NCBI GenBank assembly: GCA_973895155.1 | Contig: OZ316891.1 | Span: 9,983,875 to 10,047,874 of the forward strand | DNA length: 64,000 nt | DNA from: Marsupella aquatica | Lineage: Eukaryota; Plantae; Marchantiophyta | Direction of reading: 5' to 3' | Part shown: piece by piece, positions 3,986-51,399 of the stretch | How the letters are laid out: each line of letters starts with the position of its first letter | Position numbering within the stretch: the first letter of the stretch is position 1 | Program-made: the position numbers and the translations under genes | Notes under the pieces: generated by a model | Database searches by the model: none | What the model saw: the letters and a program-made list of their open reading frames with translations, nothing else | Told to the model about the DNA's origin: nothing

Positions 3986-4140
3986 AAGCTTGTGCGATCT
4001 TGCTTGTTGTTTGTGGGAACTGAAGCACTCGTGCAATCTTGTTTGTTGTTTGTGGTAACTAAAGCTTGTGCAATCTTGTTTGTTGTTTGTGGTAACTAAA
4101 GCTTGTGCGATCGCGCTCAACTAAGCTTGTGCAATCGTGC
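3986..4140. repeat. ~37-bp minisatellite, ~4 copies
   Basis: Unit AAGCTTGTGCAATCTTGTTTGTTGTTTGTGGTAACTA repeated in tandem. Confidence 0.85.
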
Positions 4141-24325: not shown

Positions 24326-24648
24326 TGTAGAGGTTAACTCAGTCTTGGGTTGAACCATGGTTAGTATGTTAACTGGGGTTAGAGTAAACCCTAGTTAAAG
24401 AGTTGGTCCTTATCTCTTCAACTTCTATGTGGTGTGAGAACACGCAAGAGAGTTCTCAAGAGAGAACACACTGATATAGCAAGAGATGAGAGCTTGAAGA
24501 GATGAGAGCTATGGTGATGCTTGAGTACACACATAACCGTTAATAAAGCTTTGTATTCCCGTGGACGTAGCCAACCTTGAGGCGAACCACGTAACTATTG
24601 AGCACGTGTATATTTGGAGTGTTCTTCCTGATCTGATTTCTCCCCACA
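24326..24648 (+). repeat. 5' LTR
   Basis: TGTAGAGG...CCCCACA, direct repeat of 30047-30369. Confidence 0.97.
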
Positions 24649-24650
24649 AT

Positions 24651-24662
24651 TGGTATCAGAGC
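24651..24662 (+). promoter_or_regulatory. Primer binding site complementary to initiator tRNA-Met
   Basis: TGGTATCAGAGC begins 2 nt after the 5' LTR. Confidence 0.92.
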
Positions 24663-28800: not shown

Positions 28801-29852
28801 GATTTGTGCAAAGCGTGTACGATCCATGTGTTTACATCAGGCGTGTGAACAACACAGATTTTAAGCTTGTCATCCTTGTACTTTATGTGGATGACATGCT
28901 CATTGCAGCACAGGATAGGGGCGAAGTTGATAAGCTTAAGGCCCAACTCAGTTCTGAGTTTAAGATGAAGGATTTGGGCACAGCCAAGAGGATCCTAGGC
29001 ATGGAGATTGTCAGGGATGTTAACAAAGCCAAACTTTGGCTGACGTAGAAAAGATATGCAGAGAAGGTACTCTCAAAATTTAACATGGCAGATGCTAAGG
29101 CTGTGAGTGTTCCTTTGGCAAGGCATTTCAATATTTCTGCAGCATTTTGTCCATCGGATGCGACAGAAAAAGGTTTGATGCCCAAAGTTCCTTATGAAAG
29201 TGCTGTGGGTAGTTTAATGTATCTCATGGTATGCACCCGACCAGACATAGCTTATGCCGTTAGCAAGGTAAGCAGATATATGGCAAATCCAGGAAAAGTT
29301 CATTGGGAAGCAGTGAAATGGATTTTGCGCTACATCAGAGGTTCCACTAAGAAGGGTTTATTGTTTGATGCAAGTTCAAACAATATGAAAGTGCTTCAAG
29401 GTTATGTGGATGCAGACTACGCAGGTGATCTGGATAAGAGAAGATCGACAACTGGATATGTATTTACACTTGCTGGTGGATGCATTAGTTGGAAGTCTAC
29501 TCTCCAAAAGTGTGTTGCAAAGTCTACTATGGATGCCGAGTATGTAGCGGCAGTAGAAGCAGCATCAGAGACCATTTGGTTGAAAAAGCTTGTCACGGAG
29601 ATGGGCTTATCACAAGATTGTGTCTATCTTCATTGTGACAGTCAAAGTGCAATTTACACTGCCAAGAATCAGGTGATGGATGGTAGGGTAAAGCACATTG
29701 ATGTCCGCTATCATTTCATCCGACAGACATTATCGGATGATGAGTTTGAGCTTGTCAAGATTGATGGAAAGCTTAATCCAGCGGATGCTTTTACCAAAGT
29801 ATTAGACTCCAATAGTTTTTCAAGGCATTGTAATTATTTACAAATATTGTAA
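25821..29852 (+). pseudogene. Copia gag-pol polyprotein, one frame with two premature stops (27705-27707, 29046-29048)
   Basis: CWKCDKVGHMKKDC zinc knuckle, WILDSACSYHM protease, WHARLGH / LRSDNGGEY / QNGVAER integrase, FKARLVAKGF / QMDVVTAFL / LYVDDML RT, and YVDADYAGD / KHIDVRYHFIR RNase H. ORFs 25821, 27948 and 29085 share one frame. Confidence 0.95.
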
Positions 29853-30046
29853 ATATAGAGTTAACCAAGAAAATGTCTCTATATGAGTACTCCATCCGAT
29901 GGCTTATCGGCTACGGCTTAGTTCTAGTTAACCCTTGCATTAGGGGGAGGGTCTTTGGGCCCTACTGTCTTGAACTTCCCGCGGAGGAACTTGTAAGGAA
30001 AAGACAATGTTATGAACCCTCCCAAGACGTGAGTCAAGGGGGAGTT

Positions 30047-30369
30047 TGTAGAGGTTAACTCAGTCTTGGGTTGAACCATGGTTAGTATGTTAAGTGGGGT
30101 TAGAGTAAACCCTAGTTGAAGAGTTGGTCCTTATCTCTTCAACTTCTATGTGGTGTGAGAACACACAAGAGAGTTCTCAAGAGAGAACACAGTGATATAG
30201 CAAGAGATGAGAGCTTGAAGAGATGAGAGCTATGGTGATGCTTGAGTACACACATAACCGTTAATAAAGCTTTGTATTCCCGTGGACGTAGCCAACTTTG
30301 AGGCGAACCACGTAACTATTGAGCACGTGTATGTTTGGAGTGTTCTTCCTGATCTGATTTCTCCCCACA
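30047..30369 (+). repeat. 3' LTR
   Basis: Direct repeat of 24326-24648, preceded by a polypurine tract at ~30036-30044. Confidence 0.97.
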
Positions 30370-30870: not shown

Positions 30871-31609
30871 GTAAAGGAGAGAAGGAGCAAGTCTTTTTCT
30901 TTGTTTGTTTTTTACCCAAAATGCCCTTGCATTTGAATGGCGACCACTCTATACATTGGCGCAATGTTATATTATCGGTTTAAGGTTTAAGGTTTTAGGG
31001 TTTAGCAAAGATGACCATTTTATCGCTATCCTTTCAATCCCCGTGCGTTGCATAAAAGATGTTGTTTGGTTAAAGATGTTGTTGAGAAATAGCTCATGGT
31101 GCAAAAGATATCATTGAATAAAAAATTGCACAAAACTTTTTGTTGAATGAAAGATATCATTGTGCAAAATACTGGCCACGGCAGCCACAAAAGTTCCCTT
31201 TTTCTTTTTTCTCCTTGCACAAAAAAATTCTTTGAATAAAAGACGTCATTGCACAAACCACTGGCTATGACAACCACAAAAGTATAACAAAATGAGAGGT
31301 GTTTTTCCCCCCTTTAAACTTTTTTCCTCTTATGTTCCTTGTAAACCTTAACCTCCCCCTTTTCCCCATTTCACCATCACTCCACTCGCTCGCCGCCCCC
31401 TCCCTCCCCACCTGTGCGCGACTGGAGCCCTTCGAGGGGCTGCCCTACATTGCAAGTGTGCCCCTCGCCAGACAACTTGCCATCAACGTCCGTGTCATGC
31501 GTTTCACTATGTCTTTGGGCCTTATTACTGTTGTTTTTTGGCATTGAAAATGATAGTGCAAATGACTCTAAAAATCACCACAAATATTGCACTAGAAGAA
31601 ATCGAGCCA

Positions 31610-31830
31610 TTCTGAGACCCAGCCTTACATGACTTGTGTGAGACCTTTGAAAATAAGTGACTCCAAGGTTTAGGGTGTCATCTTTGTTACATCTTCTTGA
31701 CTCACTTTTGGTGAAGTTCTGGGAAGTCATGTATTTAACTATTGGGAAAGTTGCTTCTGTAACTGAGTTAAGGCAAGTATATTGAAGTTATATAAGTGAC
31801 CATGACTTACATGATTTCCTTGCCCAATAC
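31610..31830. repeat. Left subterminal repeats of the CACTA element
   Basis: Clustered TGACT/AGTCA/GTGAC motifs in both orientations. Confidence 0.6.
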
Positions 31831-32544
31831 ATATGATTTTGGATCCATCATATTAATCACATTATGTCATGCAATTATATATAGTTACCTCCCTTTGCTT
31901 TAACCATCACTGAGTTGCTCTTTATTGTTCCCCTGTAAGAAAGTATACATGACATTTTTACCCTAATTGAAGTTTAGGTAAGTAGGGCAAATTTGTGATT
32001 CTAGCTAGACAAGAACCAACCAAATTTAAGTTAACATTCATGTACACGGCCGCAACTGAGTTCAAAAAGGTGTGAAAATTTGTGCCATGCCCCCAAAAAT
32101 AATGATGCACCCTAAACCCTAATACTCTACATACATAGTTACCTTAAAAAAGTCACCACAACCAATTAGTGGTACTTGTCACATACTGCTCACACACATA
32201 TTAAAACTCACTTCATCCCCTAACTCATTTTAAAAATTTGCTCTGCATATATACCCCATAATTAGCCAATATCAAATGGAACCCCCTTCATATGGGAATA
32301 TTGAAGGGCCCAATTTAGGACCTCTTTTTCCTTAAGTGCACAATGCAATGCCGTTGCATCAATTTCTCTATCGGAAGCCCTCTTCCAATGAACCATGTTG
32401 CGCAATTGCAAGTTGATACAACTGGCAATAGCTTTTGCCCTAAACTTTTGACTGCCAAAAGCTTTTGTGGAGGGACTTGGAGAAAGAGAGAGTGCGCCCG
32501 CAAAGTGAGAGTCTTGTTGTTTCATGAGCGGGAAAGTTTTCACA

Positions 32545-34421
32545 CACTAGTAGAAACCGGGGCAATTTATATGTCAAGGCTAGGGGGTGGCTGGGTTTTC
32601 ACTAAAGGGGGTTTAGGGGGGGTTTGATGTCAAGGGTCGGGGGTTGCATGTTAAGGGGATGGGGGTTTAGGGACCATTGGATCGTCAGCATCCATCCCCC
32701 CCGGTCCATTCTTCATCCATTTAACCCTCTTTTGCCAATGACTCCAAATGTCCAATGGGTTTTCAGAGGGTTTATGCTTGAGGAGGGTGAGTTTAAGGGT
32801 AGGTGTTGTTTTTTGCCATCTGGGTGACTTAGGATATTTATCTAACCCAATGACTATACCCAAAATACCCAACTAAAAGCCCCCCCCCCAAAAAAAAAAT
32901 GCATGCACCCTTGGTCTTAGTTACCGTTTAATCCTAACTGTGAACTTACGTCTAAATGTGTTAGGTGCTTGCAGAATGCCTATGAACGAGTCCTTCCAGT
33001 CGACTCAATGTTTAGGGTAAACGGATTTTGTAAAGGAAAATTGCACAAAGTGTCGACGGCTACCACCAGGGTTTTCCTTCACGTTTCTGCAAGGGAATCC
33101 AAGGCCAAACACTTTGCGCCCGATAATGCACTTTTCCTCAGTTGCTCTCGACTCTTGCACCTGATTGCACTCAGTCAATACATTTAGCGCTTTTGGAGGT
33201 GGGATTTCATGTCATTGCGTAGGGCTTGGAGCTTCGACCTTTGCTATATGACCCATTGTCGACTGCAATCTCACTATAGGGTTTAGGTGGGCCCTAAATC
33301 TTACATTCGTCTTTCCTGTGGTGACAACGCGGGTGCTAAGGTGTATAGGAGCAAGGTTGTCGGGAGGTTTATCGCGGATGACTGGCGATTGGTGAGGCCT
33401 ATTTGCATTCATCTCCACTATCATTGGGTACCCGAGATACAACGATCGACCTTCTATACAGAGGCGAGGAAGTGACGAGAACCTACAACTCTTTGCGGGA
33501 ATGCGTGGTCTTCTGCTTACCTGATTGCCCTCATGCTTGACTGTAAATACATTAGTAAAGTTTTGCTTTGGCTCAACTTTGGTCTTTTTTGGCCTTGCGT
33601 GACTGCGCTCACTTCTCTCGGTTTCCAGTGTGCAGTTGGCTAAAGACCTGGATGTCATGCTGTGAGCGCAAGCTGCTAGTAGTTGTCCATAGCTTGGGGA
33701 AAGCGGTGGGGACTGAGGCCACAAAGGAGTTTGACCTGCGCTTTTTTTTCTTTGCAGCAAGAGCGAGAGTGAGACGAGTTGCAAATTGAGTTTCATTGAG
33801 CTACTGCCCTGGGCTTGGCGGAGGTCCTACACTCTTGTGTCGCTCACTTGTTCAGCTGCGGTGGGAGCGGGCTTTTGGTAGTAACCTGTTCAGTTGCAGT
33901 GGGAGCTGACAACTTTGGTGGCTGTGGTGTTGAGCTTCTGAGGAGGGCAAGCAACTGCGTGATGTGCCCTTGAGTGAATGTCTCTTGGAGGAGCTGCGAA
34001 GTGGTGAAAGGGGAAGGAGGTGAGCTCGGGCCTGGAAGCAATGTGCTTCTCCAACATTTTTGCACAATGCAATGCTGCTCAATCGTTTATCCTTCCTCTA
34101 AAGTTGAGTGTGACGCATCGACCTTTGACGGGAGTATCTGCATTACAGTTTGCTACATACGGCTGCTCTCTATATGGCAATCGCCAATAGCTAGCGCAAT
34201 GGAGGGTTCGACGTCAACTTTGAGTCATTGATCAGTGCACACTACATCGCTCTCCCTTTGCTAAACCCTTTCTTTTGGCTTGGTTCTTGGTGCCTTTGGC
34301 ATAGGAGCGACGTTATTGCTAATCAACTCCCGAATCAACTTTGGAGGTGCGGGTTAGAAGGGGTTGGAGAGAGGAGGTCCAAACCAAGAATGCCCTTCAC
34401 CGTCAACGGTTTCTACTAGTC
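32545..34421. mobile_element. Possible nested non-autonomous CACTA remnant
   Basis: CACTAGTAGAAACCG at 32545, with a perfect 14-bp inverted copy (CGGTTTCTACTAGT) at 34407-34420. The terminal base and TSD do not match. Confidence 0.5.
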
Positions 34422-36782
34422 CCGGCCATGCAGCTGAAAGTGCGCTTCTTTCAGGTGTCGTAGCATTCTGCCAGCCGGGTGCTTGGACTGTAGAGAAGAG
34501 CAACCACAGTCATTCAGTTCTTCTCCTAGCTGAGCTGCGCATTGTCAACCATCGAGCGCTGCTGCGCGCTAGCTGTGAACCCCAAGAGGAGTTGCGACAA
34601 GGAGGAGATGCAACCAAGAGGAGATGCGACGAAGAGGAGATGCGACCAAGAGAAGCTGCTGCATCCCACATTGAGTTGGACATTGAGGTAGGGATGTGAG
34701 CTACGCACTTTCAACCATCAAGCAACCACCAAGCTCGGCAGCGCTCTGGGATTTGTTGGCCACAACAGACAAAGCGGAAGACAAAGGTGAGTGTTCATGC
34801 ACCGTTAGAGTAACCGCAAGTACTCTATTACATGCCTCATTGTTCTCTATTACATGCCTTGTTCTCCCGCCCACTGTTTCCTGCGATTTTCTTTCTTCCA
34901 TAAGAGAATGGTGATTTCTTCTTCTATCAAACAAAACCCCACCCAACCACCACACAAGAACGTGGGGTGCGCGCTTCTTAATCCTCCTCAAACTGGCCCA
35001 TTGTTCATTGAAACCCCACATATTACCCACCGGCACCAAGGGTCCAGTCCCAACCCGTCTTCCGCTCCCCACCATCTTCACTCTCTCGCGCATCTATCTC
35101 CTGAACGGCGTCGCTCTCCCTTAGACGCAGAATGCTCCGCTGTGATATTGCCTCCAACTTTTCTAGTGCAGTCTAGGCAATTAGATTGCTTTTGCGAAAA
35201 CTGCCCTTCTTAAAAGTGAGCAATACTAATAAGCCCCGGGGGTGGAGCGTTTGTTACGATGGCCGTGGACCTACCGTGGGCTATGGTAGAACACTCTATT
35301 GTCTATGATGATTATGAATCTGCTTGAACTGCGAGTGGATGTGCTTTAAGGCAAACTTGTCGGAGAAATTAGAATGGGGGGACGGAGCTGTCAGTGCTTA
35401 GGTTGTGGCATTTTTGAGATTGTCAAGAGTAATCTGTGATCTCATTTCTAAATGGTTTGAGCTCCTCTGATGTGCATAGGAATCGGGCTGAGGAAAGCTT
35501 TTGGGAGCTATCATCGGAACTAGCTTTCGATCTATTTCTGCTACTTTTGAATTGGTACTTGGGAAGGCTTTGTATCGTTAAGCACTACAAGATTCACAAG
35601 CCAGACCTGCTTGCTAGTATGAGGGGCTTTGAAGGAATGTGTGGCCAGGGCTGATTAAGTATGGATTAATTTTGCATTGCCTGAGATACTGAAATTGCCA
35701 CCCGCTTTGTTTCAATGCCTTTGATATTAATTGTTAATATCTCAAGAGGGTCGTCAACTAAGCTGAAAGGAGTCAAAGCTAACTACAAGCTAGCAAATAC
35801 AGAGAATGCTCCCAAGTCGAGTCAGGAGGAAGTTACTAAAACTAGACCTTCACAACTCTCGAAACTGGAAAGTGAAATTCAGCGTGAGACACGTAGCTGA
35901 AGGCCACAAGGATAACTATATGGCCACGCTGTCCCCCATTCAAGTCCAAAGTCCTCTTCAGATTGTCTGAACTCCTATTGAATGTATTGAATAATTATTT
36001 CATCACAGAAATTTTCAGAACAAACACGGAAGCACCAGGGGGCTGAGGATTGGATATTGAGGCTGAAGACATTGAGGTCATAAACTAGGTGTGGTTCGGG
36101 TGACAATGTTAGCAACTGATGCTTCTTCAGGGGAACTTCCCATGTGCAGTTTATCCACACATGATTGACTTTGGTTCTTGCTGTTTTTCTTTTGGTGTAC
36201 TCTTGAGTTTGGTGTCACTCTATCCTTTCCTGTAGCCTCGAAATAGGAACACACCTGCTTAGTGGTCCCCAATCGCCCAATGATTTATAATGACTGTGTC
36301 TAGGTGATGTATGCATTGCGTGTTCATTCCAGAAGAATGAATATGTACACTTTGCACAAACCTGGACAGATTTTGAATGTTATTTATCTGAGTTTCTGTT
36401 TGTGAGCTCTGACTTGGAGCCTTAACATTTGTGTTTCTGTGGGGCTGAGCAGAGTTTGTTCCGTCTAGAAGCTGCTGTACTGAAGTGATCAGCCTCCGGC
36501 TTGGAGGTGAATCTTCAATTTTTTGTGGATCCGAGTGACTTCTGTCCAGCTGAGTTTTGCTTTGTCGGGACGATTGTGTTTGGCTAAGATGCTAGATTGT
36601 GGCTTGTCTTCTTGCTTCCAGCTTGTGTATTTTCAATTAATAGAAGTTGGGAACGAAGTGATAATTGAATTTCCTTATATTAAGCATCTTCACCTAGAAA
36701 CTCAATACATAAACTCCAGGATTCCCTCGGGACATAAAATGAGCCAAATTGTCTCAAAATTGGGAACTTGCACCCGCACTAC

Positions 36783-37125
36783 TCAAACAATTGTGTTGGG
36801 CTTGGTGGCCTTGTAAGTCTTCTTTAGCTTTCGCAATGGAGGTTGAATCTTGCAGTACGTCAAGGGGAACTTGATCTTTGAATCATGGAACTGCTTGGTA
36901 CTTTCTCGCTTGCACAGAGAGACAGGGACTGCCGTAGTCTTCATGATCTGGATGCCAGGGAACCGAACTCTATGACAAGAAGCCATCTCATCATACATCT
37001 GCTCTGCAGCTCCGTTTCTTGTGGTATCACAATATTCCTTGTACATGTTGTGATAACCTGTACGACTCTGATACGTGGACCCAGATACCGAAGTTCTTAA
37101 TTGTGGTGGGCTTCTTTTCGAAGAT
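36783..37125 (-). pseudogene. RPL18a: Captured terminal exon of 60S ribosomal protein L18a (eL20)
   Basis: After acceptor CCAG|: [15 protein letters not shown], a 1-nt frameshift, then [57 protein letters not shown]. Confidence 0.9.
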
Positions 37126-38133
37126 CTGGTAGACACATTATTCAGCATTTGCTAACTTCGAAACTAGAAGGGTAACACATTAAACAACAGAGAAACTCAC
37201 AACATCCTCCTTTGGTCCTTCAGAGTCTGTACTTTGATTCTGAAGTTTGACTGAGTTTTTGTTTACTAAAAGAATGTGACTGTGTAAGAGTTCCGTTTGG
37301 CAGTGGATTGGTTGAAGCACTTCATGCTAGTGTGTTGTCCACAGCTCTTCAACCAGCTTTCGTCTTCCTTGTCTTTCACCACTTACGATGACATCAATTC
37401 AGCTAAGACCATAGAAGGTTCCAAAGCATCTAACTTGTAAAATCGCATTCTGTTACATCAAGGACTAAGGTGTTGGGTGCCAAAGGAGACAGCACAACAA
37501 ACACGCTGAAAAGACTTCAGGACTGGGTTCAACAAGGTAGTGAAGGTGCTTAGAGCCATAGTAAGTATGCATTCTGTATCTTTCTCTGTTGATGTGAGCT
37601 TGTGCATAATGGGAGTTGTAGTTGGCAAGAGTTCCAAATATGAATAGATCCAGAAGTATGTGATCATGTACTTGCTCTATAAAGTTCTGAAGATATAAGC
37701 ATTTTCTGTTAGACCAGGCAACTTGGGAGTTGGTAAGTGTCACCTGCATCTGAGGGGCTACACCGGGGCATCAGTGGAGGTTCACTTGCACAACACGACA
37801 ACCAGTGAATTTTCTCTCTGCTGCAACCTGCAAGGTGAGACTTTCGGTCTTTCTGGATGAAAAAACAGGAGTTTAATATGATTGATATACATGTCCGTCG
37901 AGAATATGGGTTTATCACCAAGCTCTTTGTCTTAGGAAACTCATAAACTCATAATCAAATATGTACTATGCACGTTTCATGCTATGTGTATACTATGACC
38001 TGTAGTTGGAACCAAGACAATGAGTGGGAACTGATTAGTTTAGGTGGTTGCTGTTGGCGAGGCAAGTCGACCTCCTGCTCACCTTGCTCATCAAAGGACG
38101 TGAACAGAGGACATCACAACGAAAGCAACACTT

Positions 38134-38583
38134 ATGGTGAGGACCCGCAACGCTGAACATGTGCGACTTGCACGCAAGGCAGAGATGTTGCGCCTTGAGT
38201 ATGTTAGACTTGGGATCCTTCCAGCCCAGTCTGCATGGTACTTTGAGTACCCTGTTGTTTCCAGGAACAACTACAGCCGGCCTCTACCTGCTTCAGTACC
38301 CTTCCCGACATCCTTGGTATTTGTGTCTCTTGTACATGACCCGCCACAAATTAGGTGCCAAGGGTGTGTACACAGTTGCCAATATGACTGTCCTGCCTGT
38401 AGGGCTTCTGGCCCAGAATTGGATGACCGTTCTCTTGGATGCCGATTTTTGCATAGAGCACAATGTATCATCTGGAACCACTCGCCATCCTGCAGTGTGC
38501 CTGGTGATGTCACTTGTCCTGCCCTCCCAGACCCCACCACCGGTGACTTTGGTGTCTACACATGTTTGGATCACATGCTCTAG
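38134..38583 (+). CDS. Cys/His-rich hypothetical protein, 149 aa (CACTA cargo ORF-A)
   Basis: ATG-initiated intact ORF with a basic N-terminus and CxxCxHxCxxxCxxC..C..H..C..H..C..C..C..H. No family recognised. Confidence 0.5.
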   Translation: MVRTRNAEHVRLARKAEMLRLEYVRLGILPAQSAWYFEYPVVSRNNYSRPLPASVPFPTSLVFVSLVHDPPQIRCQGCVHSCQYDCPACRASGPELDDRSLGCRFLHRAQCIIWNHSPSCSVPGDVTCPALPDPTTGDFGVYTCLDHML

Positions 38584-39198
38584 AGGACCACTTGTCACAC
38601 CGCATGCACAGACCAGATACCATTGACCTATAGCTTAACACTGTGACTTCAACACAGAGGATATTTACTTAAAATTTTGATGTATGAACAATTTTGGGTC
38701 CAGGGTTTAGGGTCAACAGTACATAACTTATATCCTATTATGCCTGCACTAAGCAAAATATCCTAATTTAAGAGGCTAGCAAACTCGCATAAAAGTCTCT
38801 ATTGAAAGACTGCTTTCATGACTGCTTTAACCTGGTGAACATTGCAACGTTGAATGAATTAATGGGCCATGTGATAATATGCAAAATGATTTATGCCTCA
38901 CTTATTTGTCTCAACCACTATCATAACCTATTTAGGATGTATAAATTTCAACCCTTATGACACTGCTTCATACCAATCCTCTTCGAAGAATGCCTGTTTT
39001 ACATGTCATGACTATTGTATGTGATTCAAATGCATGAAATGTTGTTGCAGATCTCCTTTGGTGAATCATAGCCACAATTAAAATTGAGGTGTTGGTGGAG
39101 AAATTGTATTAGGGGATCAGTTTTGTGTGTGGGCTCAACATACCAAAAGTATGTGTGCTCTGCATCCTTGTGTGGCCATTCCAATTCATTGCAGTAGC

Positions 39199-39342
39199 AA
39201 ATGCCTTTGTACCTTAAATGCTAAATATATTTTACTTTATGTGCAGTCTGCTAAATTGTAGAGTCTATCTAAATGCCTTTGTACCTTAAATGCTAAATAT
39301 ATTTTACTTTCTGTGCAGTCTGCTAAATTGTAGAGTCTATCT
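39199..39342. repeat. 72-bp tandem duplication containing a splice-acceptor-like motif, directly before the PHD ORF
   Basis: 39199-39270 and 39271-39342 differ at one base; each contains TTTTACTTT.TGTGCAG. Confidence 0.9.
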
Positions 39343-39353
39343 CATGCGCAGGC

Positions 39354-40034
39354 ATGGCACGGCCTAAAATTCAAGCCAAAAAGCGTGTGACAGAGGTGAG
39401 AAACACAGGTGTACTTGGGGCAGATGCTACTAACTTCTCTGCAAGTCAGATTTTCCAGAAGGCAGCTCATTGTTGTGCCATTTGTGACGATGGTGGGGGC
39501 CTGGTCATTTGTGAGGGCCCTTGCATGAGGCATTTCCACCTCAACCCGGAGTCTGACCTTGCTGCAGAAAACAACTGTCCAGGGGTGGGCCTCCCGTCAA
39601 CACACCAAGGAGACTGGATGTGCACTGATTGTTTGGAGAAGCAGGCTAAGTGTGCACAGTGTGGGAAGTTGGGGTCCTATGAGGGCTCTGTTGATGCTGC
39701 AGCAAATGTTAGGAAATGTCCAGACCGTTTTTGTGTGAGATTTTTCTGTTTTGAGTGTTTGCCTGCTCATGCCACAGCTTGCCCACTTCATAGGTGCAAG
39801 GCATGTGGTGAGCATGATGATGACTACTGGACTGACATAGTCCACTGTGCTAGGTGTCCCACTATGTGGCACTATCATTGCCTGAAAGATCATCAAGCAG
39901 AGGGTTATGCTTGTGACAGAGAAATCTATGATCACTCTGCACATGGTGTTGATCGATGGATATTTTATTGTCATCGCCATGCCATTGATCCTACCTCGCG
40001 CACTCCTGTGAGAGATCACATATCTTGGCTGTGA
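39354..40034 (+). CDS. Stand-alone EDM2/NSD-type composite PHD-finger protein, 226 aa (CACTA cargo ORF-B)
   Basis: CAICDDGGGLVICEGPCMRHFH..C..WMCTDC..KCAQCGKLGS..C..C.RFFC..C..CPLHRCKAC..CARCPTMWHYHCL..IFYCHRHAID...TPVRDHI follows the EDM2 PHD pattern as recalled, including the terminal YC..H.ID...TPVRDH motif. Confidence 0.88.
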   Translation: MARPKIQAKKRVTEVRNTGVLGADATNFSASQIFQKAAHCCAICDDGGGLVICEGPCMRHFHLNPESDLAAENNCPGVGLPSTHQGDWMCTDCLEKQAKCAQCGKLGSYEGSVDAAANVRKCPDRFCVRFFCFECLPAHATACPLHRCKACGEHDDDYWTDIVHCARCPTMWHYHCLKDHQAEGYACDREIYDHSAHGVDRWIFYCHRHAIDPTSRTPVRDHISWL

Positions 40035-40626
40035 AGCTGAACATTGTACATGCACAGTGCACCTGATGTGGATGTACTATTTTTTGAGATTGCAGAGATT
40101 CCAATTTTGAAAAGGAGTTGGGTAGGCGAGTTTATATAGGCAGCACTTATCTTGTGCTCTGGCGTCAGTGGCTGGGTACATGCCTATACAAACTTATCCT
40201 TACAAGCCTTCTTGGAAGTATTTAGGCTAAGTGGTCATTTTCATAAACACTTTCATTAGACTGCTAAATTAAAACAGGACTTCTAAGTTGTAAGCGTATA
40301 AATTATCAGGCATGCAATTAATCAAATTGCCCTATAAGTTTGTCATTGAATGTATCCTCCTTTACAACAAAATATGTATGTGCCATGACAAGTTGGTTGC
40401 ACTTCATTTCACCACGGATATGGATTTTGTAGTATATATTCAAACAATGTCCTGCATCCGTGCAGGTGCCTAGTACGTATTGTTCACATATCCCTTGTAC
40501 CTATCAAAATCGGACCTGAGCACCAGTGGGCCAGATCAACTCAAAAAGCAGGAATTTTGTTGTCCTTGTATTGTCAGGTGAACCCATTCTTCCAAAATTC
40601 ACTGTCATCACGTAGAGTGTGTGTAC

Positions 40627-41499
40627 ATGGAGCCTGGTAAACGTAGAAAGTGTGACCACCCAGCAGTGTTTACAGGGGTCAGAGCGATTTTGGTCCATGG
40701 CCAGCATGGGTTGACCAAAGTGCATTGGCCAACTGTACAGAAACGATTCTCTGAGCTCCATGGCACTGTAGTTCAGGACATCACTCCAGAGACTACACAT
40801 GTTGTTGCAGGGACATGGCTATCAGTGATAAAGAAGTGGTCATGGTCCTACATGAATTCTGCAATTACTAAGCAAGGCCTAAAAGTAGTTGAGGCCTCTT
40901 GGATCACAGATTCCATAGCACATAAGATTGTACAGGATACTGAGCAATATGAGTTGTGGGAGGATGAAGAAGCTACTGCATCAGCTTGGGCTGAACAAGA
41001 AGTCTGGGAAGCAAAGGCACGGCTTGCTGATCTCCAATATGGACCTGTACTCAACAAAGGACAGAGCTCTACAAGGCTGAAGTGTATGTTGGCTGAGGAG
41101 ACGAAGCAACCAACCCCCATTCTGAAAGGGCTGAGCATGGTATTTGTGGAGGCGGGAATTGGAGAGGTTAAGTGCAAAGTGTACAAGTCCACAGTGCTTG
41201 ACCTAGGTGGGACAGTGGAGGAGAATATAACAGAGGACACCACTCATGTCATTACTAAGTCATATCCCAAAGCCTGCCGCAAGTTTGGGAAGGGAGACAT
41301 TCGCTTTTATGTCATGTCCCATAATGTGTTTGTGGTTTCATATGCTTGGCTTGTGGAATCAGTAGCAGCTGGGAAGCGTCAAAACCCAATGGACTATGAT
41401 CTTTTTGAGGCCTGGCCACGGAAGGGTCAGGATCCTTACAGAGAGGACTATGAGACAACAAGTGAGGAATGGGTCATTAGCGATTCTGAATCAGAGTGA
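40627..41499 (+). CDS. Tandem BRCT-domain protein, 290 aa (CACTA cargo ORF-C), Pol lambda/Pol X-like BRCTs
   Basis: Two repeats: FTGVRA..HGTVVQDITPETTHVVA..VVEASWITDSI..YEL and LKGLSMVFVEAGIG..LGGTVEENITEDTTHVI..VVSYAWLVESVAAGKRQNPMDYDL. NLS-like KRRK at the N-terminus and an acidic tail. Confidence 0.88.
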   Translation: MEPGKRRKCDHPAVFTGVRAILVHGQHGLTKVHWPTVQKRFSELHGTVVQDITPETTHVVAGTWLSVIKKWSWSYMNSAITKQGLKVVEASWITDSIAHKIVQDTEQYELWEDEEATASAWAEQEVWEAKARLADLQYGPVLNKGQSSTRLKCMLAEETKQPTPILKGLSMVFVEAGIGEVKCKVYKSTVLDLGGTVEENITEDTTHVITKSYPKACRKFGKGDIRFYVMSHNVFVVSYAWLVESVAAGKRQNPMDYDLFEAWPRKGQDPYREDYETTSEEWVISDSESE

Positions 41500-41904
41500 G
41501 GAGTAGTAGCATCAGTTTGGACACAAGTTTTTTTGTATAAATCAGATCATTGAAATAAATGTGATCTTTGAACTAATGTACCTTGTTATGGTTGGTGGCA
41601 GTTGGGCTTATTTTACTGTTGGCGGATTGTTGTTTCCTGCTGCCTGGGGGTGTCACTGTAAACGTACATGCAGAGGCGGTACATTTGAGGACAGCGGAGG
41701 AGGTGGTGACACCCTCCAACATTTAGGAATTTTGTGTCATTCACTTGACAATAGGTACACTACTTGCGAACCTGTTTTTTTCTTTTGGGGTGGTTTAGGG
41801 TTTGTGAGAATTTAGTACACGTTATGTTAACTCTTTTGGCAGATACAGTCAGGGATATATGGAACACAAATACCACCATTAGGCATCCTTGTTCACTGCT
41901 GTCC

Positions 41905-44900
41905 ATGACTGCAGAGCTCCCAGTCTGTTACAATGCACCCTGGTCACCACCCTCCCAGACCCAGCCCAGGGCACAGGCACTGCCTTTGCATCATCCCACA
42001 AGGATATCACGCCATGATAATAAGCTTTGGCAGCGTGAAAGGTTACGAACCAGACTTTCAGGAGCCAGTAGGATGAGATGTCCTTGTGCAATCTGCCAAG
42101 GATCCTGTACCAGGGGTCTGAATGAGGTTTGGCGGCATATCGCGGTTCATGGAAGAGATCCACGACATCGAGTTTGGAATGATCCTGCAGAGGAAGATTC
42201 TTCCGACGAGGAGTGGAGGTTAGAATTTGATGCTGCCAATGCTGCAAGACGGGCAAGTGAGGTTCTGCCTGGTGCATTTGAAAATGTTGTAGCTGGTCTC
42301 TGTGGGTTGTCAGCTCTCCAACGGGATGGTGCTCAGGCAGCACCACGTGACGAAAGAATTCATGTGGAAGAGATGGTGAGAGACATCTTCCAAGACTTGG
42401 ATGCATTTCATGATGGGCTGGACAATGAAGAGGATACGGCTGCAGATGCAAGTGTGCCCCCTGTCGAAGAGCCTCTTGATGAGTTTGAGATAGGGCAGGA
42501 AACCCCTGGGCATGATGGGATGTTTGGCTCTCCCCTGCAAATACAGGAAGGCAGGAAGTCTTTGTACCCCGGTAGCAAATGTTCTAAACTGGGATTTGTC
42601 ATCATGTTCCTGAACATTTGCGGCAACCACAATGTCCCCAACGTTTTGGTTTCTGAGTTGTTGGCATTCTTGCGAACAACTGTGCTACCAGATGGTAATA
42701 TTTTGCCCAAGAACATGTATGAGGCAAAAAGATGCATATCTAATCTTGGATTGAACTATGATTCGATCCATGCCTGTCCTGATGGGCATGTTCTTTTCAG
42801 AAAGGAGTATAAAGAATCGTTGACATGCCCTAAGTGTGGGAAGCACAGGTATCAGAACTCAGGAAAGTCTATGGTTCCCGCCAAGGTACTTCGTCATTTT
42901 CCACTCATTCCCAGACTTCAGCGGATGTTCAAAAGCCGTGCCATCTCGGAGATGATGACTTGGGCAACTAACAAGAAAAGTGATGATGGGCTACAACGAC
43001 ATGCTGCAGATTCAAGGCAATGGAAACTCATAGATGAGATGTATCCCGAATTTGCTGCTGAGCCGAGGAATGTCAGACTTGGGCTGTCATTGGATGGGGT
43101 AAACCCATTTGGAGACAAGAACAACAAATTTTCGTGCTGGCCTGTAACTATTTTGAATTATAACCTTCCTCCTTGGATGACTACAAAGCAATTTTTTGTT
43201 CTGATGGTCCTACTGATACCAGGGCCAGACAGTGCTGTATCTGCCAACATAGATGTGTTTCTGGCTCCCCTAGTGGAGGAATTGAGAAAGCTTTGGGAGG
43301 AAGGAGTTCTCACATATGATGTCCTACAGAGGCTTGGGAGGTTAAACCCATTCATCCTTAGAGCCATTGTCATTCTGACTATAGCTGACTACCCAGCCCA
43401 TGGGATGATATCAGGCCAAAAAAAAAAAGGATATTGTGCTTGTACTATCTGTGGGCGCAATGTCACCAGTGAGTACTCCAGAGCCCTGCAGAAAGTGATA
43501 TACATGGGCCATCGTCGTTTTCTGAAGGCAGATCACCCTTACAGAGAAAGATAGGCACTGATTGCACACTTTGGCAATGAGATTGAGCAACGTGGACCCC
43601 CGGCACGAGTGACCAAAGAGGAGATCAGGCAGTGGGGAGCACTGAGGGATGACTATATCAAACGAGGGGGCAGGGAAGATGGAGTGAGTGATCCAATAAA
43701 GCGATATGGTGTAAAAAGACTGAGCATATTGGACTTGGAGCTCAAGTACTGGAGGGTAAGCCTCTTGGAGTTGATGCTAATTGGGATACATGTTTTGGTT
43801 CAGAGCATGTGCATTCATTTCGAAGAGAGAGACTAAACTTGAGGCATTTCTTGACGCTTTTGCATTGCAACGATGCAGGAGTTTGAGCCAAGCAAACATA
43901 ACATTGATGTTATGCACATTGAAAAGAATATTTGTGAGTCTACTCAGATTCTTGTGTGGAGAGAAAGACACTGGTTCAGTGAGATTGGATCTTGAACAGA
44001 GGGGAATGAAACCCCATCTTTGGTTGAGGCCACATGCCCACAGAGCTGAGGTGCTCTTGAAGTACCAAGCGCCCTATGTTCTGACAAACACAGAGTGGGA
44101 ACTATTTGTGCAGAGGTTGAGTTCTTTGAAGGTTCCTTCAAACTATGGCAGTGCTTTCAAGAAGCATATCATGACTAGAAAGCTTGGTAGTATGAAAAGC
44201 CATGACTACCATATGTTGATGCAATAGGTGTTGCCTTTATGCCTGAGGGGCCTGTTGCAGAAGCCTGTTCGTACTATGATCATGCGACTCAGTGATGTGT
44301 TTCGTCGTATTTGTGTGAAGGTTTGGGATGAAACACACTTCCCACAACTGACAGAAGATGTCGCTCAGGTGCTGTGTGACCTGGAGATTTATTTTCCTCC
44401 CGCATTTTTTGATGTCATGACCCACCTACTTGTCCATGTTGTGGAAGAGCTACACCAATTTGGGCCTGTGAATGCTCGTTGGTTGTACCCTTTGGAACGG
44501 TACATGAAGCTACTCAAAGGTCACGTGAGAACATATTACAAACCTGAAGCAAACATGGCTAAAGGTTACATCAAGGATGAGACTCTGGGATTTCTGACCG
44601 AATACATAGCACAATATGAGCATGTGAAGACCAAGGTGTGGAATTCTGATGAGGAGGAAGGGGTGATAGGTGAAGTACTGGAAGGGGCTGCAACCACAAA
44701 GAACCTGACCATATCTATGAGAGACTTGGCACATGACTTTGTATTGCACAACACTGTGGTGATGGAACCCTGGATACAGTGAGTGCATACATGTGCTATA
44801 ATCCAGTTCATGAGCTTAAATGTTGTGTTCGTGTGGTTTTCTCCTTCAGCCTGTTCATGTTTACCCAAGCTAATGCTGTGTGGTTGTTCGTTCAGGGAGT

Positions 44901-45661
44901 ATGAGTCATTGAAGGCGGCCCATCCCACTGCAGGAACAACTTTTCCAGGTTTCATGGAGTGGATCAGAGTGGCAATTAGAGAGCATCACGAGACCCACCC
45001 AGACATGGATGCAGATGTTTACCTACTGTCTAATGCCCCTAGCCTGAAAGTGAAGACTTACAAACGGATGAGAGCATATGGGAATCACTTCCGAGTGAAG
45101 GATGGTGACAGTGCCTACAGGGTGACGAATGACTGCGGGCTCATCACTGTATTTGAGCAACAGAGCCACAATCATGACAGGGCCTGGATGGAGATGGGAT
45201 ATGTGGGAGAATTAGTTGACATATGGGCTCTGGACTATGGGGCGGTGTCCAGTCCTGTGATTCTTATGAAAGGTTCATGGGTGCGGCAGGATTGGCTTGG
45301 TAACAGGGCTACCATGAAGAGAGACAACGACGGTTTCTTGCTGGCCAATTTCAGAGGGAAATTGCCCGAATGGTCTGAGCCATTTGTGTTTCCTAGTCAG
45401 GTGGAGCAAGCTTTCTTCCTGGATGTGGAAGACTCCCCAGGTTGGCATGTAGTGTGTCATAAACAGGCCAGGCAACGTCGGATGGAAGGATCAAACCTTG
45501 AGTTTTATTTACACTCTCATAGTGCCTTTGATCGTCGGCGTTCAGACCAAGTGCCTGTAGTTCATGATAGCGGGGACTTCATTCCTGTGACAAGGGTAGA
45601 TGCATTTGCTGAAGGAGGCGAATTCAGAGATGCAGATGCCAACAGTGTGCCTGTGCCATGA
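41905..45661 (+). pseudogene. CACTA transposase TnpD (Transpos_assoc + Transposase_21 + DUF4218 + DUF4216), disrupted
   Basis: RCPCAIC..RHIAVHG, IHACPDGHVLF, LRHFPLIPRLQRMF, RNVRLGLSLDGVNPF, YNLPPW, TIADYPA, DVMHIEKN, KSHDYH, RWLYPLERYM and EPFVFPSQVEQAFF. Premature TAG at 43552-43554 and 44225-44227, frameshift near 43940, introns at ~43756-43878 and ~44779-44895. Confidence 0.93.
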
Positions 45662-45817
45662 GTAATGTGAATTGTTTGCATGGACATTAGTGAGGGGAAG
45701 GATGTGTAATAAAGTAATTCTGAAGCAACACAGATGTATGGATGGATGCCTGGTGATTGTGGTTGCATTGTGTTATACGGGGTGACCATAGATGACATGT
45801 TTTTGTGGTCCAGTAGG

Positions 45818-48800
45818 ATGGAACAGAGTGACACAGAGATGTGTGAGTATGAAAGGAAAGCTATGGAACAACGAGCATACGTGAAAGCCAAAATCGCAGA
45901 ACTGGATCTGGAAAAGGATGTGGCTGAATTGTAAGGGAAGGATTCTCAACTACACCCCTCCGCTGAGTTTGTGTGACATGAATAGTTCAATGTGGCACTG
46001 AAATTGTGACTGTATTCTCATATTGGAATGTCGCAGAGCCACAGCATTTTCAAAGAAACAAAAGGAGTACGCAAGAAGGGTGACCAGCACTATCTCTGGG
46101 CCTGTGCGTCGGAGTGACAGGTTGAGCAAGAAGGTCGTACCTACAATGGTAGAATGTGGAGATGACATTGATGCTGCACAGGTGGGTGCAGACACTAGAC
46201 AAGAAGATGTAGATGATGAGTATTTTCCAGAGGAAATGGATGAGGATGGGGGTTATGAAGATAAATACATTGCAGAGCAGCCCCAAAAGAAACATGTAAG
46301 TAGTTTTCCCAACAAGGTTTTGAGTTAAAAACTCTTGTTTAGAGGTTTCATATGTTCAGTACTACACATATGTACCTTGCTTAGTTCCTGACATTGTAGT
46401 TGGTGATGTGATGCAGCGTCTTGCCAGTTCTGTTTTGCCTTCAAAGCCTGTGCATGCACCATACCAGCAGGGGGGCTGACCTCTGATCAAGGTTGGCGAG
46501 GTGGTAGTAGTGGTAGATCCCAGGCTGGTGCCCAATACTATGGCAGGGGGCAAGCTCTAGGTTATGCCCGTGGTAGAGGCAGAGCAGGTCCAAACCCACA
46601 ATCTCGTGGGTATGGACGTCCACCTCAACCATGGGGATGTGAGTATATATCTATATGCCAGTTCTTTGTGAAGGCATGGCACTCCTGAATTTCAGACTGC
46701 ATATCAATTTTTGACATTGTTTGGGATGTATTGGATTCAGACAACATGAAATTCTGTCCACCTGCCATTGCATGCAGATTCTGCCCAACCTGATTGGGCA
46801 AATGCTAGTAATGATCAGTTCCAATGTCCACAAGGACAGACATGGGTTGAACCAGGTTGGGAGGATGGTGGTGGGTCGTGGAATGAACAAGGTTGGGAAG
46901 GTGGTGAAGGTAATTGGCAGGGATATCAAAATTCAGTACCTACAAACGCTGGAAGAGGAGCAGGTAATGTCTGATCTTGTCAGCAATGGAAGAACTCATT
47001 ATATGTGGAGTCCATTCACGTGGGGGGGACTCTGCACATGTATAATGATAGAAAATGTATGTGTGCAGGTTGGACAGTCGAACCATCAACTCAAGTATTC
47101 ACTAATGCCCCTATGCAGATGCAGCACGGAAGGGGGACAGGTATGTCGGTGAATGTTCAATTGTTTTCCTACAGTTTGTACTTAGTTTTCAGTACATATG
47201 TTTGCACACACATACCTAGAAAGTGACATCATCCGGCCCCTGTACTAGGCTGGACAGGTGGTCCAGGGTCGCAACAATTTCAGAGTGCAGTCCCTGCATA
47301 GGCATCTACAGGCAGAGCTACAGGTATGTATGTTTGAAGAATTTTTCTTGAAGTGAAGCATTGAATGTTACCGTCATCCATTCTGCTATATGTAGTTCTC
47401 AAGCATGAATGGCATTGTATTTTCCCAGGTGGCTTCAGAACCCCAGGTAGGGTGAATGAAGGGGTGGCCAATACAACGCCCAGTACTACCGAGAGCAGTG
47501 CACGAGGGGAGGTGACAAAGAAAGGGAACGTAAAGTTGAATGAGAGACAATGGGTGGATGCTGAGTGTCCTCGCAAGAACCGATGGCATGCTGATTTGAA
47601 AGCTGAAGTATTGCGTTGGTTAGATGTGAGTGTTATTAATTTTAAAAAACAGCATCCAAAAGATTGGAAGACTGTATGTGAAAATGTTGCTGCCAAATGG
47701 AATTATGTGGGCAGTGATGATGGCGTGGACATAGGTTGCCTAGAGAGTACAGCAGGTAAAATTATCAAGCAAGAGAGGTGGAGAATGCATAAGGCTTGGA
47801 AGGAAGGTGGGGAGAAGCCAGATATGCCTCCACCAGCCAGTTGTGATGATAAAGTGTGGGCAAGGTTAGTAGCTTATTTTGTAACAGATGCTTCAAAAAA
47901 GAAGAGTTCACAGATGACCGAGGCTAGGTTGAGTGTTCAGAACCCTAATCTGACAGGAAGGACCGGCACTGCACCGACAGCTAAACGTTTGGTAAGAATG
48001 AATGGCCTAGCTATGTAATTTATGCTACACTATGTACTATTTTTTAGTGTAAACCCATACATGTAAACTTTCTTTTTTAGTGTACGTTCCCTGAATATTG
48101 ATCGATAACTTGTGTTTGCCATGCATGTGCAGAAAGCCCAATTGGGGCAAAGCCCTTCAAAAGAAGAGTTGAGGGCTGAAATTGTGAACACCCAGGCTCA
48201 AGAGGGTGCATCTGAATCCTCCAAGCATGTAAGTTATATGAGTTCTGATTGGTAATTGAATGACCTGCGTTGAATTTCAGGTGTACACTGTATATAACAT
48301 TGATTGTGCATATATTGCCCAACATTTCATATGGAGTGATTGAACCTATACCCCTGTGTCATGTAGGGAGGTGGATCTTCACTTACAGAGATAAGTGGTC
48401 GTTTGAAGGCTGTCGAAACATGTCTTCCAGAGATCAATGAACGTTTGAATTCATTGACTGACTTGTTCCATGTGAACTTCAAGACATTAATGGAAGCTGT
48501 TGTGTCGGTGAGAGATAAAATTGATTCCAATTCTGCAGGAGTTCCACCATCACCACTTGAGGTGGCAAAGTCGATGCACTCTTCTGGCATGCCAACGACA
48601 TGTAGGCTTGAAGGTAAGGCCTTTACAACTGTGTGGGATATGATTATTAAATGTATAGTTTGAATTGACATTGTTTGTTGAATGTGTTATTTTCAGTAAC
48701 ATATATTGTGGTTGTTGTGTCCATAGAGAATAAGACAGGTGCTACAGAGAAGAAGTATGAGAACTTGGCAAATACTCGCTGTAATTTAGAGGCAACAAAG

Positions 48801-49523
48801 TTGCAGTCTGTACAAGCAACTTGTTTGACAGAGGGCAGTCAACCATGTTTGGATGAGGATGACATTGGCAAGGGAGTGGATGATATCAATGTTGGGGCAA
48901 ATGAGGATATCAGCAAGCATGACAATGATACCATTGAGCCAGATTCATGCTATGTAGATCTTGACTCCATTGCAGAGATAAATGATTTGCAGAATGTATC
49001 ATTCTCAATGACAGGTGTGCCTCTTGTTGAGATAAATCCAACCAAAGAGTTAGTTGGTATGACACTCCCAGGTGATGAACCTGCTACTGTGACAGTCCTA
49101 ACAGAGGAACCTACTGAGCCTAGCTTCACTACTGTGAAGAGAGGAAGCATGCGCACACGAAGCAAGTCTGCTGGTGGGAGCAGAGCCACGTCAAAGGTTT
49201 CATACAAACCTCCAAGAACAGTGCTGGCAGAAAGATCTAAGGTGGAAGTGGGGAAAGCACCTAATGCTGAGGGACAAAGTGGCTTGTTAGCTGTTGATGA
49301 GAGTGGAACACGAGTAGGATTTGCCAGAGTGCAGGTTGGTTCCACAACGTTCCATGGCAAGAGGATTCCCCCAGGTTATTCAGTAGTGTTAGTCACATTA
49401 CTAGTGAAACCTAAAGCTGTCCTTCCCATTCCAAACACAAATGATGATCCTCCTCAAAAGACACTTGGAGATGCTGCAGGTTCTTTGGTATTATGGCCAA
49501 GCAAGTTCATAGAGGATCCATAA
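45818..49523 (+). CDS. Multi-exon TnpA-like (Ptta/En/Spm-type) second CACTA gene; exon structure only partly resolved
   Basis: Exon-like blocks with GT-AG ends. ERWRMHKAW..PPPASCDDKVWARLVAYF..KKKSSQMTEARLSV..TGRTG at 47430-47990. C-terminal FHGKRIPPGYSVVLV..LPIP..TLGDAAGSLVLWP, typical of the Tnp1/TnpA C-terminus. Confidence 0.75.
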
Positions 49524-50019
49524 CAATGTCATGCCATTATTTGTTTGTAGTGTGAGTCATGTTATGTAGATTTTAGATGTCAAGAAGCAGTACAAGAATC
49601 ATGTCCTCTTGGAGATTCATAGTATCATGCATGTGCTTTCAGTTATCTCATCCTACAGTCATCAATTATGAGTTCCTGTTTTGTCTAAATTACATTGATC
49701 ACATTGTAAACTATTCCATTGGAATTCAAATGATCTTCATTTTTTAGCAAGATTGTGATTGTGTTTAATTCTTATGAATGTTTTATGTAGGATCTGCTTA
49801 TATGATGCTTTGTTTCATGTGGATGTCATTCATGCTATGTTCATTTCTTGTATTCAATGTGTTATATTTCTAAAGTTAGAACATCAGGTTTCTATGTATT
49901 GTAATGTCGAGTGCTCTCTCTCCTTATGAACTGTCCCTCTGTGTTCATTAGTCATGGTTATAACTTGCATGTGAACCTTATTAGTTATAAACATGAGTAT
50001 ATAGAGTCCCAAATGGTTC

Positions 50020-50360
50020 TACTGTGTGACGCGGGCCAGGGTCTCCATTGGTCTCTCCTATGACACTAAATAGTCACACGCTAGTCGTTGTTGAATGCGG
50101 GTAAGTCATGTATGTGACTTACGATGTGACTCGCTGAAGTCATATTGCAGTCACGTCGAAACAAGGCTAGACTCCACAATAAAGTCACAGATCAGTCACA
50201 AATGGGTATCAAGCAAGTTGCAAAGCCCAATATCAATAGTGACTTCCATTTTTTGGTCTCAACTTTTGCAACTCCAAGGGTCACAGCGTGGGTCAAGTCA
50301 CGTTGAGTCACAATGAAGTCACATGAGCCAAAATGAGTCATATATTGCGGTCTCAGTTCA
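50020..50360. repeat. Right subterminal repeats of the CACTA element
   Basis: More than a dozen AGTCAC/GTGACT/GGTCAC motifs in both orientations. Confidence 0.75.
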
Positions 50361-51399
50361 CCTCGGATTCTTCTAGTGTTGGGAGAACAATTTTTTATTT
50401 ATCAAGTGACTAAAATATTATTAGCAATTAAACTCCTCTTATCACTATTATACAAAACTATGTTGCACATAATATTGAATATGTAGAATACTCTGAGTAT
50501 GTACAATACGGATCATGGAGGCCTGGAGGGAGTATCCTCCTTGATCCTCGTGCATTGATTATCGTGCATTAATTAAAGTCTTTCACTTTTTGGGGGTGTC
50601 TCGTGTGATTATTTGGCTTGTCTTGGACAATGGTGTAACTTTTTGTGTCACACTAAACTCAATCCACATTTTGATTTTATTACTTACCTTTGATCACATT
50701 TTTAAATTTTTATGCCCTTCAAATTTGAATGACGACCACTCTAAAAAGTGGCGCAACTGTGTATTATACTTTAGGATGACTAGTAAAGTACAAAGGTACT
50801 AAAGAGTTATGCACATACATTACAGATTTTCATTTGATTCTAGGTAATAAGAGTCAACTCAATTAAAACCATAAATTTTGTAAAGGAAACTACAGGGGAA
50901 CCTAGTACACCAGATGGGCACATTGTTTAAATTCATTTCTTTCACTCTCATGAGAAAAAAGAGAATTCACTAAGGAGTGATTGAAAAGAAAAGATTAAAC
51001 CTTTATGAGGGGAGCCAAATACATTCAAATAACTTCAAATTCACTAAAATTGAAAGGGGTACAAAAGTTAATTCAAAATCATATTAAATAATACAAATGA
51101 TTCACCTTGGTAAGGCACATTAAAATCAAGATACTTGACACAAAATATGAATAAGACAAAATCTGAAAGGTGGATCACCATTCACCATATATTAATTGAT
51201 TACCCTTTCAAGCCTAAACCGCTCTACTAATTAAAACTGGTATAATCCCATAATCCAACATATTATGCTCAAATTTATTTTTTTGCTCCCCAAAATTCTC
51301 TGTTTTGTCACCCAAAATTAATTAAATTCATGGGTCACCCCGTTGTTTCCTTGCATAATTAGGGGTATTTTAATTAATTATCTTTGTTGGAGTTAGCCC

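Follow-up and report, generated by a model that had tools for sequence, protein, structure and literature searches.

The question raised by this locus is why a CACTA transposon should carry three intact genes in front of its transposase. The DNA analysed, referred to here as the window, is a 64,000-nucleotide (nt) stretch of Marsupella aquatica contig OZ316891.1 (positions 9,983,875-10,047,874; assembly GCA_973895155.1), in which the element occupies 31590-50378, its ends reading CACTA and TAGTG. The three genes, referred to as the cassette, belong to a multi-copy CACTA family and are not private to the window copy, and they very probably represent a selected, long-resident module. The three open reading frames (ORFs), with lengths in amino acids (aa), are:

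38134-38583, plus strand: ORF1, a Cys/His-rich protein of 149 aa from no known family (intact ORF, relatives)
39354-40034, plus strand: stand-alone EDM2-type PHD module of 226 aa (homology, tree, fold)
40627-41499, plus strand: two-BRCT protein of 290 aa with an acidic tail (Pfam, relatives)

A preliminary description of the locus, made from the letters alone, had placed three intact, co-oriented ORFs before the transposase TnpD, and it was correct in position, strand, start, stop and basic N-termini: each ORF is uninterrupted, has its own ATG and stop, and carries 5-6 Lys or Arg residues within its first 20 aa. Three comparable ORFs occurred in 0 of 1000 resampled sequences. The ORFs are also CpG-poor like the transposase, as had been claimed (observed/expected 0.40, 0.25 and 0.23 for ORF1, PHD and BRCT vs 0.29-0.40 for TnpD), and a captured RPL18a piece in the same element stands at 0.55. 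Pfam recognizes two BRCT stretches in the third ORF (E 2e-13) and NSD-type PHD matches in the second, all of the latter under curated cut-offs. For ORF1 there was no Pfam family above cut-off, no usable Atlas match and one PDB match at E 2.2.

Occurrence across the family was surveyed by aligning contigs from public sequencing runs to the window, with 7 of the 11 listed runs examined; part of 37600-45700 is present in 9 of the 11 listed runs (7 studies, 6 organisms), and the run that contains most of it may come from the window's own source. Summed contig depth does not equal copy number, and it was the contrast between regions that was used. Family cover increases at the bin starting at 37770, and from there to 50062, spacers included, every bin has a depth of 2039-6777 in run X1 and 7544-32882 in run X2, compared to 188-1077 and 445-2191 for the bins of 31947-36475. 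Cassette bins are at least as deep as TnpD bins in both runs and far above single-copy contigs. This contrast shows that the cassette is part of the common form of the family, while the 5' cargo region belongs to a minority. In run X6, 44 differences separate a 1381-nt contig of depth 186 from the window over 40745-41667, and the contig runs on into 41664-41998; a subfamily of about 95% identity therefore retains BRCT immediately upstream of TnpD. In X6 the cover of ORF1 and PHD is deeper than that of BRCT and TnpD, so these two may be carried by other subfamilies as well. Run X7 has pieces like PHD and pieces like TnpD, each at depths in the thousands and unlinked to each other, and among the contigs listed none bridges ORF1 and PHD or PHD and BRCT. 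Indels in 37900-43000 fall in spacers in 12 of 12 cases among the matches listed (12 of 33), and a second listing has none in the three ORFs among its matches listed (12 of 109). Eight of the 15 cassette substitutions shown are synonymous (neutral 0.26, p=0.023). Multi-copy cover and the X6 contig place the cassette beyond this one copy, to which the preliminary description had allowed that it might be restricted.

Relatives of all three ORFs were first searched among near-length candidates only. ORF1 has two full-length relatives among 23 candidates (56% and 55% identity), with 10 of 16 Cys/His residues invariant across the three sequences, and the BRCT protein has two among 1238, likewise full-length (60% and 54%). 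Five relatives of the PHD protein, of 217-245 aa, were found among 123 candidates and align end-to-end at 82, 75, 53, 37 and 38% identity; 52 columns are invariant across these six sequences, and start, stop and length are kept down to 37% identity. A profile search with this family returned 564 proteins at E<=0.001, the best 150 of 564 being inspected. Nineteen short proteins, together with the window protein, were treated as stand-alone, and 135 were put down as other. A quick tree of 151 rows, from which 4 short ones had been dropped, groups 16 stand-alone rows at SH-aLRT 94; a careful tree of 38 selected rows places 11 stand-alone rows in a 100/100 clade with a stem of 1.64. This clade falls among EDM2-like and not NSD-like rows, its exact placement being unsure given the long branches and a query profile built from the same family.

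The stand-alone proteins share derived changes. The His-to-Cys replacement in PHD2 is found in 13 of 13 scorable stand-alone rows vs 2 of 129 others, the spacer is 7 aa vs a median of 27, and acids before PHD1 average 0.8 vs 3.9 in EDM2-like proteins, so that the acidic run is lost. Against a named Selaginella EDM2 the identity is 32% (198 columns, E 2e-24), and against a Marchantia EDM2 paralog whose PHD module is C-terminal (MARPO_0005s0286) it is 33%; the best long EDM2-like proteins reach 28-33%, all among public proteins, with the window's own host genome outside the comparison. Strong divergence from host-type proteins was therefore rightly proposed, since at no more than 33% identity to public EDM2-like proteins the PHD protein is far from a near-identical host fragment. 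Judged by its sequence, it is a derived EDM2-type module with its own deep clade that has kept the atypical 2.5-PHD arrangement, and its 226 aa contain PHD only, without the acidic, RFD and methyltransferase-like (ELP) regions of EDM2. The label of an EDM2-type reader fits in terms of the 32% identity and the EDM2-like clade, but not in terms of the acidic run that EDM2 has before the first finger, which is gone.

A liverwort EDM2 paralog provides a lead as candidate donor of the PHD module. A Trp in PHD3 is common to the stand-alone proteins and the paralog group (9/10 and 6/6, vs 7/127 others), and the 5 of the 6 paralog-group proteins that were looked up all come from liverworts. In the best tree the paralog is sister to the stand-alone clade, with a support of only 39/34. 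Five proteins (P0019, P0022, P0024, P0030, P0035) represent a liverwort paralog of the EDM2-like type whose sequence stops at the PHD module and has no methyltransferase-like region. Other short PHD-only EDM2-like proteins (L002-L007, P0038, P0040, P0048, P0059) represent a separate, second reduction of EDM2 and, P0038 and P0059 among them, likely come from grasses. The grass proteins as sister group, a grouping named post hoc, were rejected (p-AU 0.004).

NCBI records were found for 0 of 15 stand-alone PHD relatives vs 9 of 9 long EDM2-like proteins, and small cassette genes appear to be absent from public annotation sets, probably via repeat masking. A JGI scan with the PHD alignment reduced 221 pattern matches to 11 loci, all of them host-like EDM2/PHD or unrelated and none matching ORF1, BRCT, TnpD or TnpA. 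Viral contigs gave 0/42 matches for PHD and 0/128 for BRCT, and prokaryote genomes 0/74.

The fold predicted for the PHD protein is confident (pLDDT 87, pTM 0.80), and its neighbours are H3-binding histone readers of the PZP and PHD-C5HCH types; the best VIA match, to NSD2 PHDvC5HCH, has a modest score (Z 5.6, rmsd 2.6 over 75 residues). In AIRE PHD1, Asp312 contacts H3R2 and Asp297 binds K4 (PMC2685098). In the alignment to AIRE PHD1, the acid at the Asp312 position is retained in 17/18 and a His stands at the Asp297 position in 16/18, and in 104/124 EDM2-like proteins an acid precedes the latter position by one place. Binding of the H3 N-terminus is plausible on this model, with a probably altered histone specificity. 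Loss of the EDM2 acidic patch makes reading of H3K9me2 uncertain, and together with the His at the K4 position it suggests that the mark read may differ from that of EDM2, or that none is read.

The match between the two BRCT repeats (96.8%, E 2.6e-10, a single comparison) is better than that to any PDB chain and suggests that the pair likely arose by internal duplication. The best PDB chains are RTT107, BRCA1 and LIG4 (E 0.001-0.004), and the BRCT of human Pol lambda (2jw5) is at E=1. The likeness of these repeats to plant Pol lambda is one that we presume. A BRCA1-type phosphopeptide-binding tandem has closely packed repeats and a pocket of S/T-G and Lys; here the linker is about 53 aa long, and the residue preceding the Gly varies (H, P, S). 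An AlphaFold model made from 3 sequences was of low confidence (pLDDT 35.6) and was not used, and the Atlas matches were all below 0.9 and generic.

How the cassette might be expressed is suggested by two features:

37835-37836, plus strand: donor-like GT (AAG|GTGAG), possible end of a leader exon
39199-39342, plus strand: 72-bp tandem duplication, by which the strongest of the acceptor-like sites ahead of the PHD ORF is present twice (repeat and site scan)

It is possible that the GT at 37835 ends a non-coding leader exon shared by the genes. Acceptor-like sites within the top 1% of 1296 AGs, ranked with a home-made score that was tested against null sites, lie 36, 50 and 63 nt upstream of the PHD, BRCT and TnpD starts, and no strong one precedes ORF1. 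Short upstream ATGs intervene before PHD and TnpD, and AATAAA follows both BRCT and TnpD. Arabidopsis EN/SPM families use alternative splicing or tandem genes (PMC13547354), and by analogy either could apply to the cassette.

With regard to function, a tentative reading, to which we give somewhat less than an even chance, is that the PHD protein reads histone tails and thereby aids expression in silenced chromatin, while the BRCT pair engages host break repair. On TnpA activation of Arabidopsis Spm1, methylation is lost at the termini only and H3K9me stays (bioRxiv 10.64898/2026.08.24.746577). The PHDs of EDM2 bind H3K9me2, and the ASI1-AIPP1-EDM2 complex (AAE) promotes distal polyadenylation and full-length transcripts through heterochromatin (PMC7472560, PMC7529245, PMC10852260). 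Since H3K9me persists after TnpA action and EDM2 has this read-through role, an EDM2-derived module would plausibly be useful to the element. TnpA would bind the subterminal repeats and open the ends, leaving a long interior that stays H3K9me-marked; the PHD protein might then mark or shield this interior and, in the way EDM2 acts on host genes with heterochromatin inside them, favour full-length transcripts extending as far as TnpD and TnpA, at 4-12 kb downstream from the presumed leader. The cassette ORFs would be either terminal exons of their own or individual genes arrayed in tandem. In plants, the BRCT of Pol lambda binds Lig4/XRCC4, and the polymerase has been connected with excision-site repair and T-DNA integration (PMC4444747); the BRCT pair, having no catalytic domain, could be an adaptor to end-joining or gap-filling proteins during cut-and-paste. 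ORF1 may be a partner that binds zinc and tends to accompany the PHD gene. A more complete scenario, in which an old CACTA lineage of seed-free plants (likely liverworts) domesticated a host EDM2 paralog as a heterochromatin read-through factor and a duplicated repair-polymerase BRCT as an end-joining adaptor, and makes five proteins from one leader with alternative terminal exons, is doubtful as a whole; it would amount to a three-gene system governing both the silencing and the repair of a transposon.

Several observations weigh against the functional reading. The PHD protein is without all other EDM2 domains, so that an AAE-like effect would need further partner contacts, and its lost acidic stretch and the His at the K4-binding Asp position count in the same direction. 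Pol lambda, as the proposed donor of BRCT, scores just E=1 with 2jw5. The share of null sites that equal the acceptors is 2% for BRCT, which is clear, 13% for PHD, 44% for ORF1 and 61% for TnpD. The excess of synonymous substitutions is weak, with 4/15 in the TnpD control, and it is dominated by the window copy's own decay. A low-depth X2 contig has 38 gap letters over the PHD region, and contig joints at 39553-39626 and 41002-41117 fall within ORFs, which indicates that decayed or very divergent copies exist. Finally, genomic context covers relatives down to about 90% identity, and CACTA linkage of more distant ones is putative. Residence over a long time, as first proposed, is thus carried by the multi-copy cover, the divergent full-length relatives and the old, separate EDM2-type clade, while the functional part of that proposal is a matter of inference.

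The best-surviving alternative, although a fairly unlikely one, is that the cassette steers insertion and not expression, with PHD anchoring the transpososome in a given chromatin state and BRCT anchoring it at repair foci. Chromodomains of chromoviruses provide an analogy. The anatomy of the cassette fits this equally well, an altered histone pocket would suit a new specificity, and the window copy is inserted in another repeat; yet the cassette proteins are not fused to TnpD, and a single insertion site is uninformative. According to PMC13547354, integration is modulated by accessory factors. Slightly less probable still is a decoy, in which catalytically empty proteins compete with those of the host: PHD would titrate EDM2-type partners, and BRCT would block end joining so that the donor site is repaired from the sister chromatid and copy number rises. 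Both proteins are indeed interaction domains stripped of the catalytic parts of their host counterparts, and the family is high-copy, but the host would bear a cost if repair or EDM2 were blocked in general. That selection keeps the genes for unrelated reasons, or that they are of use to the host, the distant relatives being host genes and only the window subfamily carrying them, is improbable. Relatives at 37-82% identity lack contig context, and the uneven cover in X6 (ORF1 and PHD above BRCT and TnpD) shows that the genes are not always together; however, the contrast in NCBI records (0/15 vs 9/9) is not that of host genes, several relatives are truncated or out of frame in the style of transposon copies, and in X7 PHD-like depth is in the thousands alongside TnpD-like pieces, though unlinked. 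Passive Pack-CACTA capture of neutral host fragments, intact by chance, is very unlikely and on sequence grounds largely refuted: the element does hold a passive RPL18a piece, and zero lesions in 2004 bp vs 3 in TnpD is not a significant difference (P ~0.18), but recent capture does not fit a PHD protein in a deep clade, at only 28-33% identity to the best long EDM2-like proteins, with start, stop and length conserved to 37% identity, 52 invariant columns in 6 sequences, clade-wide derived changes and a confident fold.

Plant transposon proteins known to counter silencing, VANC and TnpA, act via DNA motifs and demethylation. A transposon-owned lineage of EDM2-derived histone readers would be a different route, with which transcription of an element with a heterochromatic interior becomes directly testable, and a transposon-owned BRCT adaptor would be a case of an element that influences how its own breaks are repaired.

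Precedents in kind are VANC, derived from MAIN-like proteins, the Ulp1 of MULEs, the TET of fungal EnSpm and the PHD of Rehavkus. As in the CACTA/EnSpm elements maize En/Spm and Arabidopsis ATENSPM, the window element has CACTA ends, a target site duplication (TSD) of 3 bp, subterminal repeats and TnpD followed head-to-tail by a TnpA-like gene (PMC4158355, PMC13547354), but those elements are described with two ORFs, whereas three further conserved genes precede TnpD here. VANC and KAONASHI of VANDAL Mutators are likewise accessory factors likely co-opted from a host protein, with a MAIN-like chromatin regulator (PMC13547354) or a Ulp1 protease (PMC13317346) as origins. They belong to another superfamily, no Pfam match connects VANC with the cassette ORFs, and VANC activity has been shown while that of the cassette is putative. 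In fungi, TET+ EnSpm/Plavaka elements also carry an epigenetic accessory gene proposed to act against silencing (PMC12730594); this is a DNA-modifying enzyme, in contrast to the non-catalytic reader and adaptor domains of the plant cassette. Rehavkus is a DNA transposon that encodes a PHD finger (PMC6446971), although in these animal elements it is fused to a MULE-like transposase and in the cassette it is a stand-alone EDM2-type gene within a CACTA. EDM2 and the liverwort paralog share the homologous PHD module at 32-33%, including a C-terminal TPxRDHI motif, and the cassette protein differs in having no RFD, acidic or methyltransferase-like regions, in the PHD2 His-to-Cys change with a deletion of about 20 aa, and in its long stem. 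A full-text literature search, with Repbase, subscription journals and genome-paper supplements beyond its scope, found no CACTA with PHD and BRCT in the text available to it, and the two terms were absent from PMC13317346 and PMC13547354 in a term look-up. The conserved accessory cassette of this CACTA family is thus apparently undescribed.

The remaining features of the element, including its terminal inverted repeats (TIRs), are as follows:

31587-31589, no strand: 5' TSD TTG, with its partner at 50379-50381
31590-31619, plus strand: 5' TIR with CACTA at its start, matching the 3' end at 11/11, then 23/30
31629-31870, no strand: 5' subterminal GTCAY repeats, 22.5 per kb vs 3.3-5.9 per kb elsewhere
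31947-37700, no strand: variable 5' region with Pack-type captured pieces, rarer within the family (contig depth, Pfam)
36783-37148, minus strand: captured RPL18a fragment, antisense (PF01775, E 3e-17)
41905-45661, plus strand: TnpD transposase of about 3 exons, broken in this copy (PF02992, DUF4218)
45797-45934, plus strand: 45-aa charged ORF in the gap between TnpD and the TnpA-like gene, no Pfam match
46020-49523, plus strand: TnpA-like/ORF2 gene, multi-exon, limits approximate (PF03004)
50026-50341, no strand: 3' subterminal GTCAY repeats, 44.6 per kb vs 3.3-5.9 per kb elsewhere
50349-50378, minus strand: 3' TIR with TAGTG at its end, an inverted match to the 5' TIR (first 11 nt perfect, 23/30)

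Matched TIRs and a TSD, as given in the preliminary description, are present in the form of CACTA...TAGTG ends with an 11-nt perfect inversion and TTG on both sides. The boundaries are further supported by X2 contigs of depth 34-45 that connect ~31587-31589 with 50381-50419, which resembles an empty site in the flanking repeat. The subterminal GTCAY repeats are likely binding sites of TnpA. TnpD matches PF02992 (E 1.7e-66) and DUF4218 (E 1.9e-28) above cut-off and carries DGVNP, IADYPA and CxxC motifs, but stops at 43552 and 44225 and a frameshift near 43935 make the window copy defective; the element was thus correctly identified as a CACTA with TnpD, whose lesions had been overlooked. The TnpA-like gene matches PF03004 at E 1.5e-4 (22.3 bits, under the curated cut-off of 28.7), and its position and exons fit. 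The 45-aa charged ORF at 45797-45934 is a possible fourth small accessory product. In the 5' region, 2 of 60 segments match Pfam, RPL18a strongly and DUF7134 weakly. The RPL18a piece (36476-37122) has a summed depth of about 10,000 in X2, locally up to about 28,000, so many copies may carry it, and in that run the loss of one base at 37078 is frequent.

Elsewhere in the window, a Copia-type LTR retrotransposon at 24326-30346, with 300-nt LTRs that are 98% identical and a gag-pol with in-frame stops, is inserted in a 35-bp tandem repeat array. Long reading frames on the minus strand at 6004-7808 presumably resemble a fragment of a non-LTR retroelement. At 16917-17386 lies a MITE-like sequence with a 22-nt perfect inverted repeat, its arms 426 nt apart.

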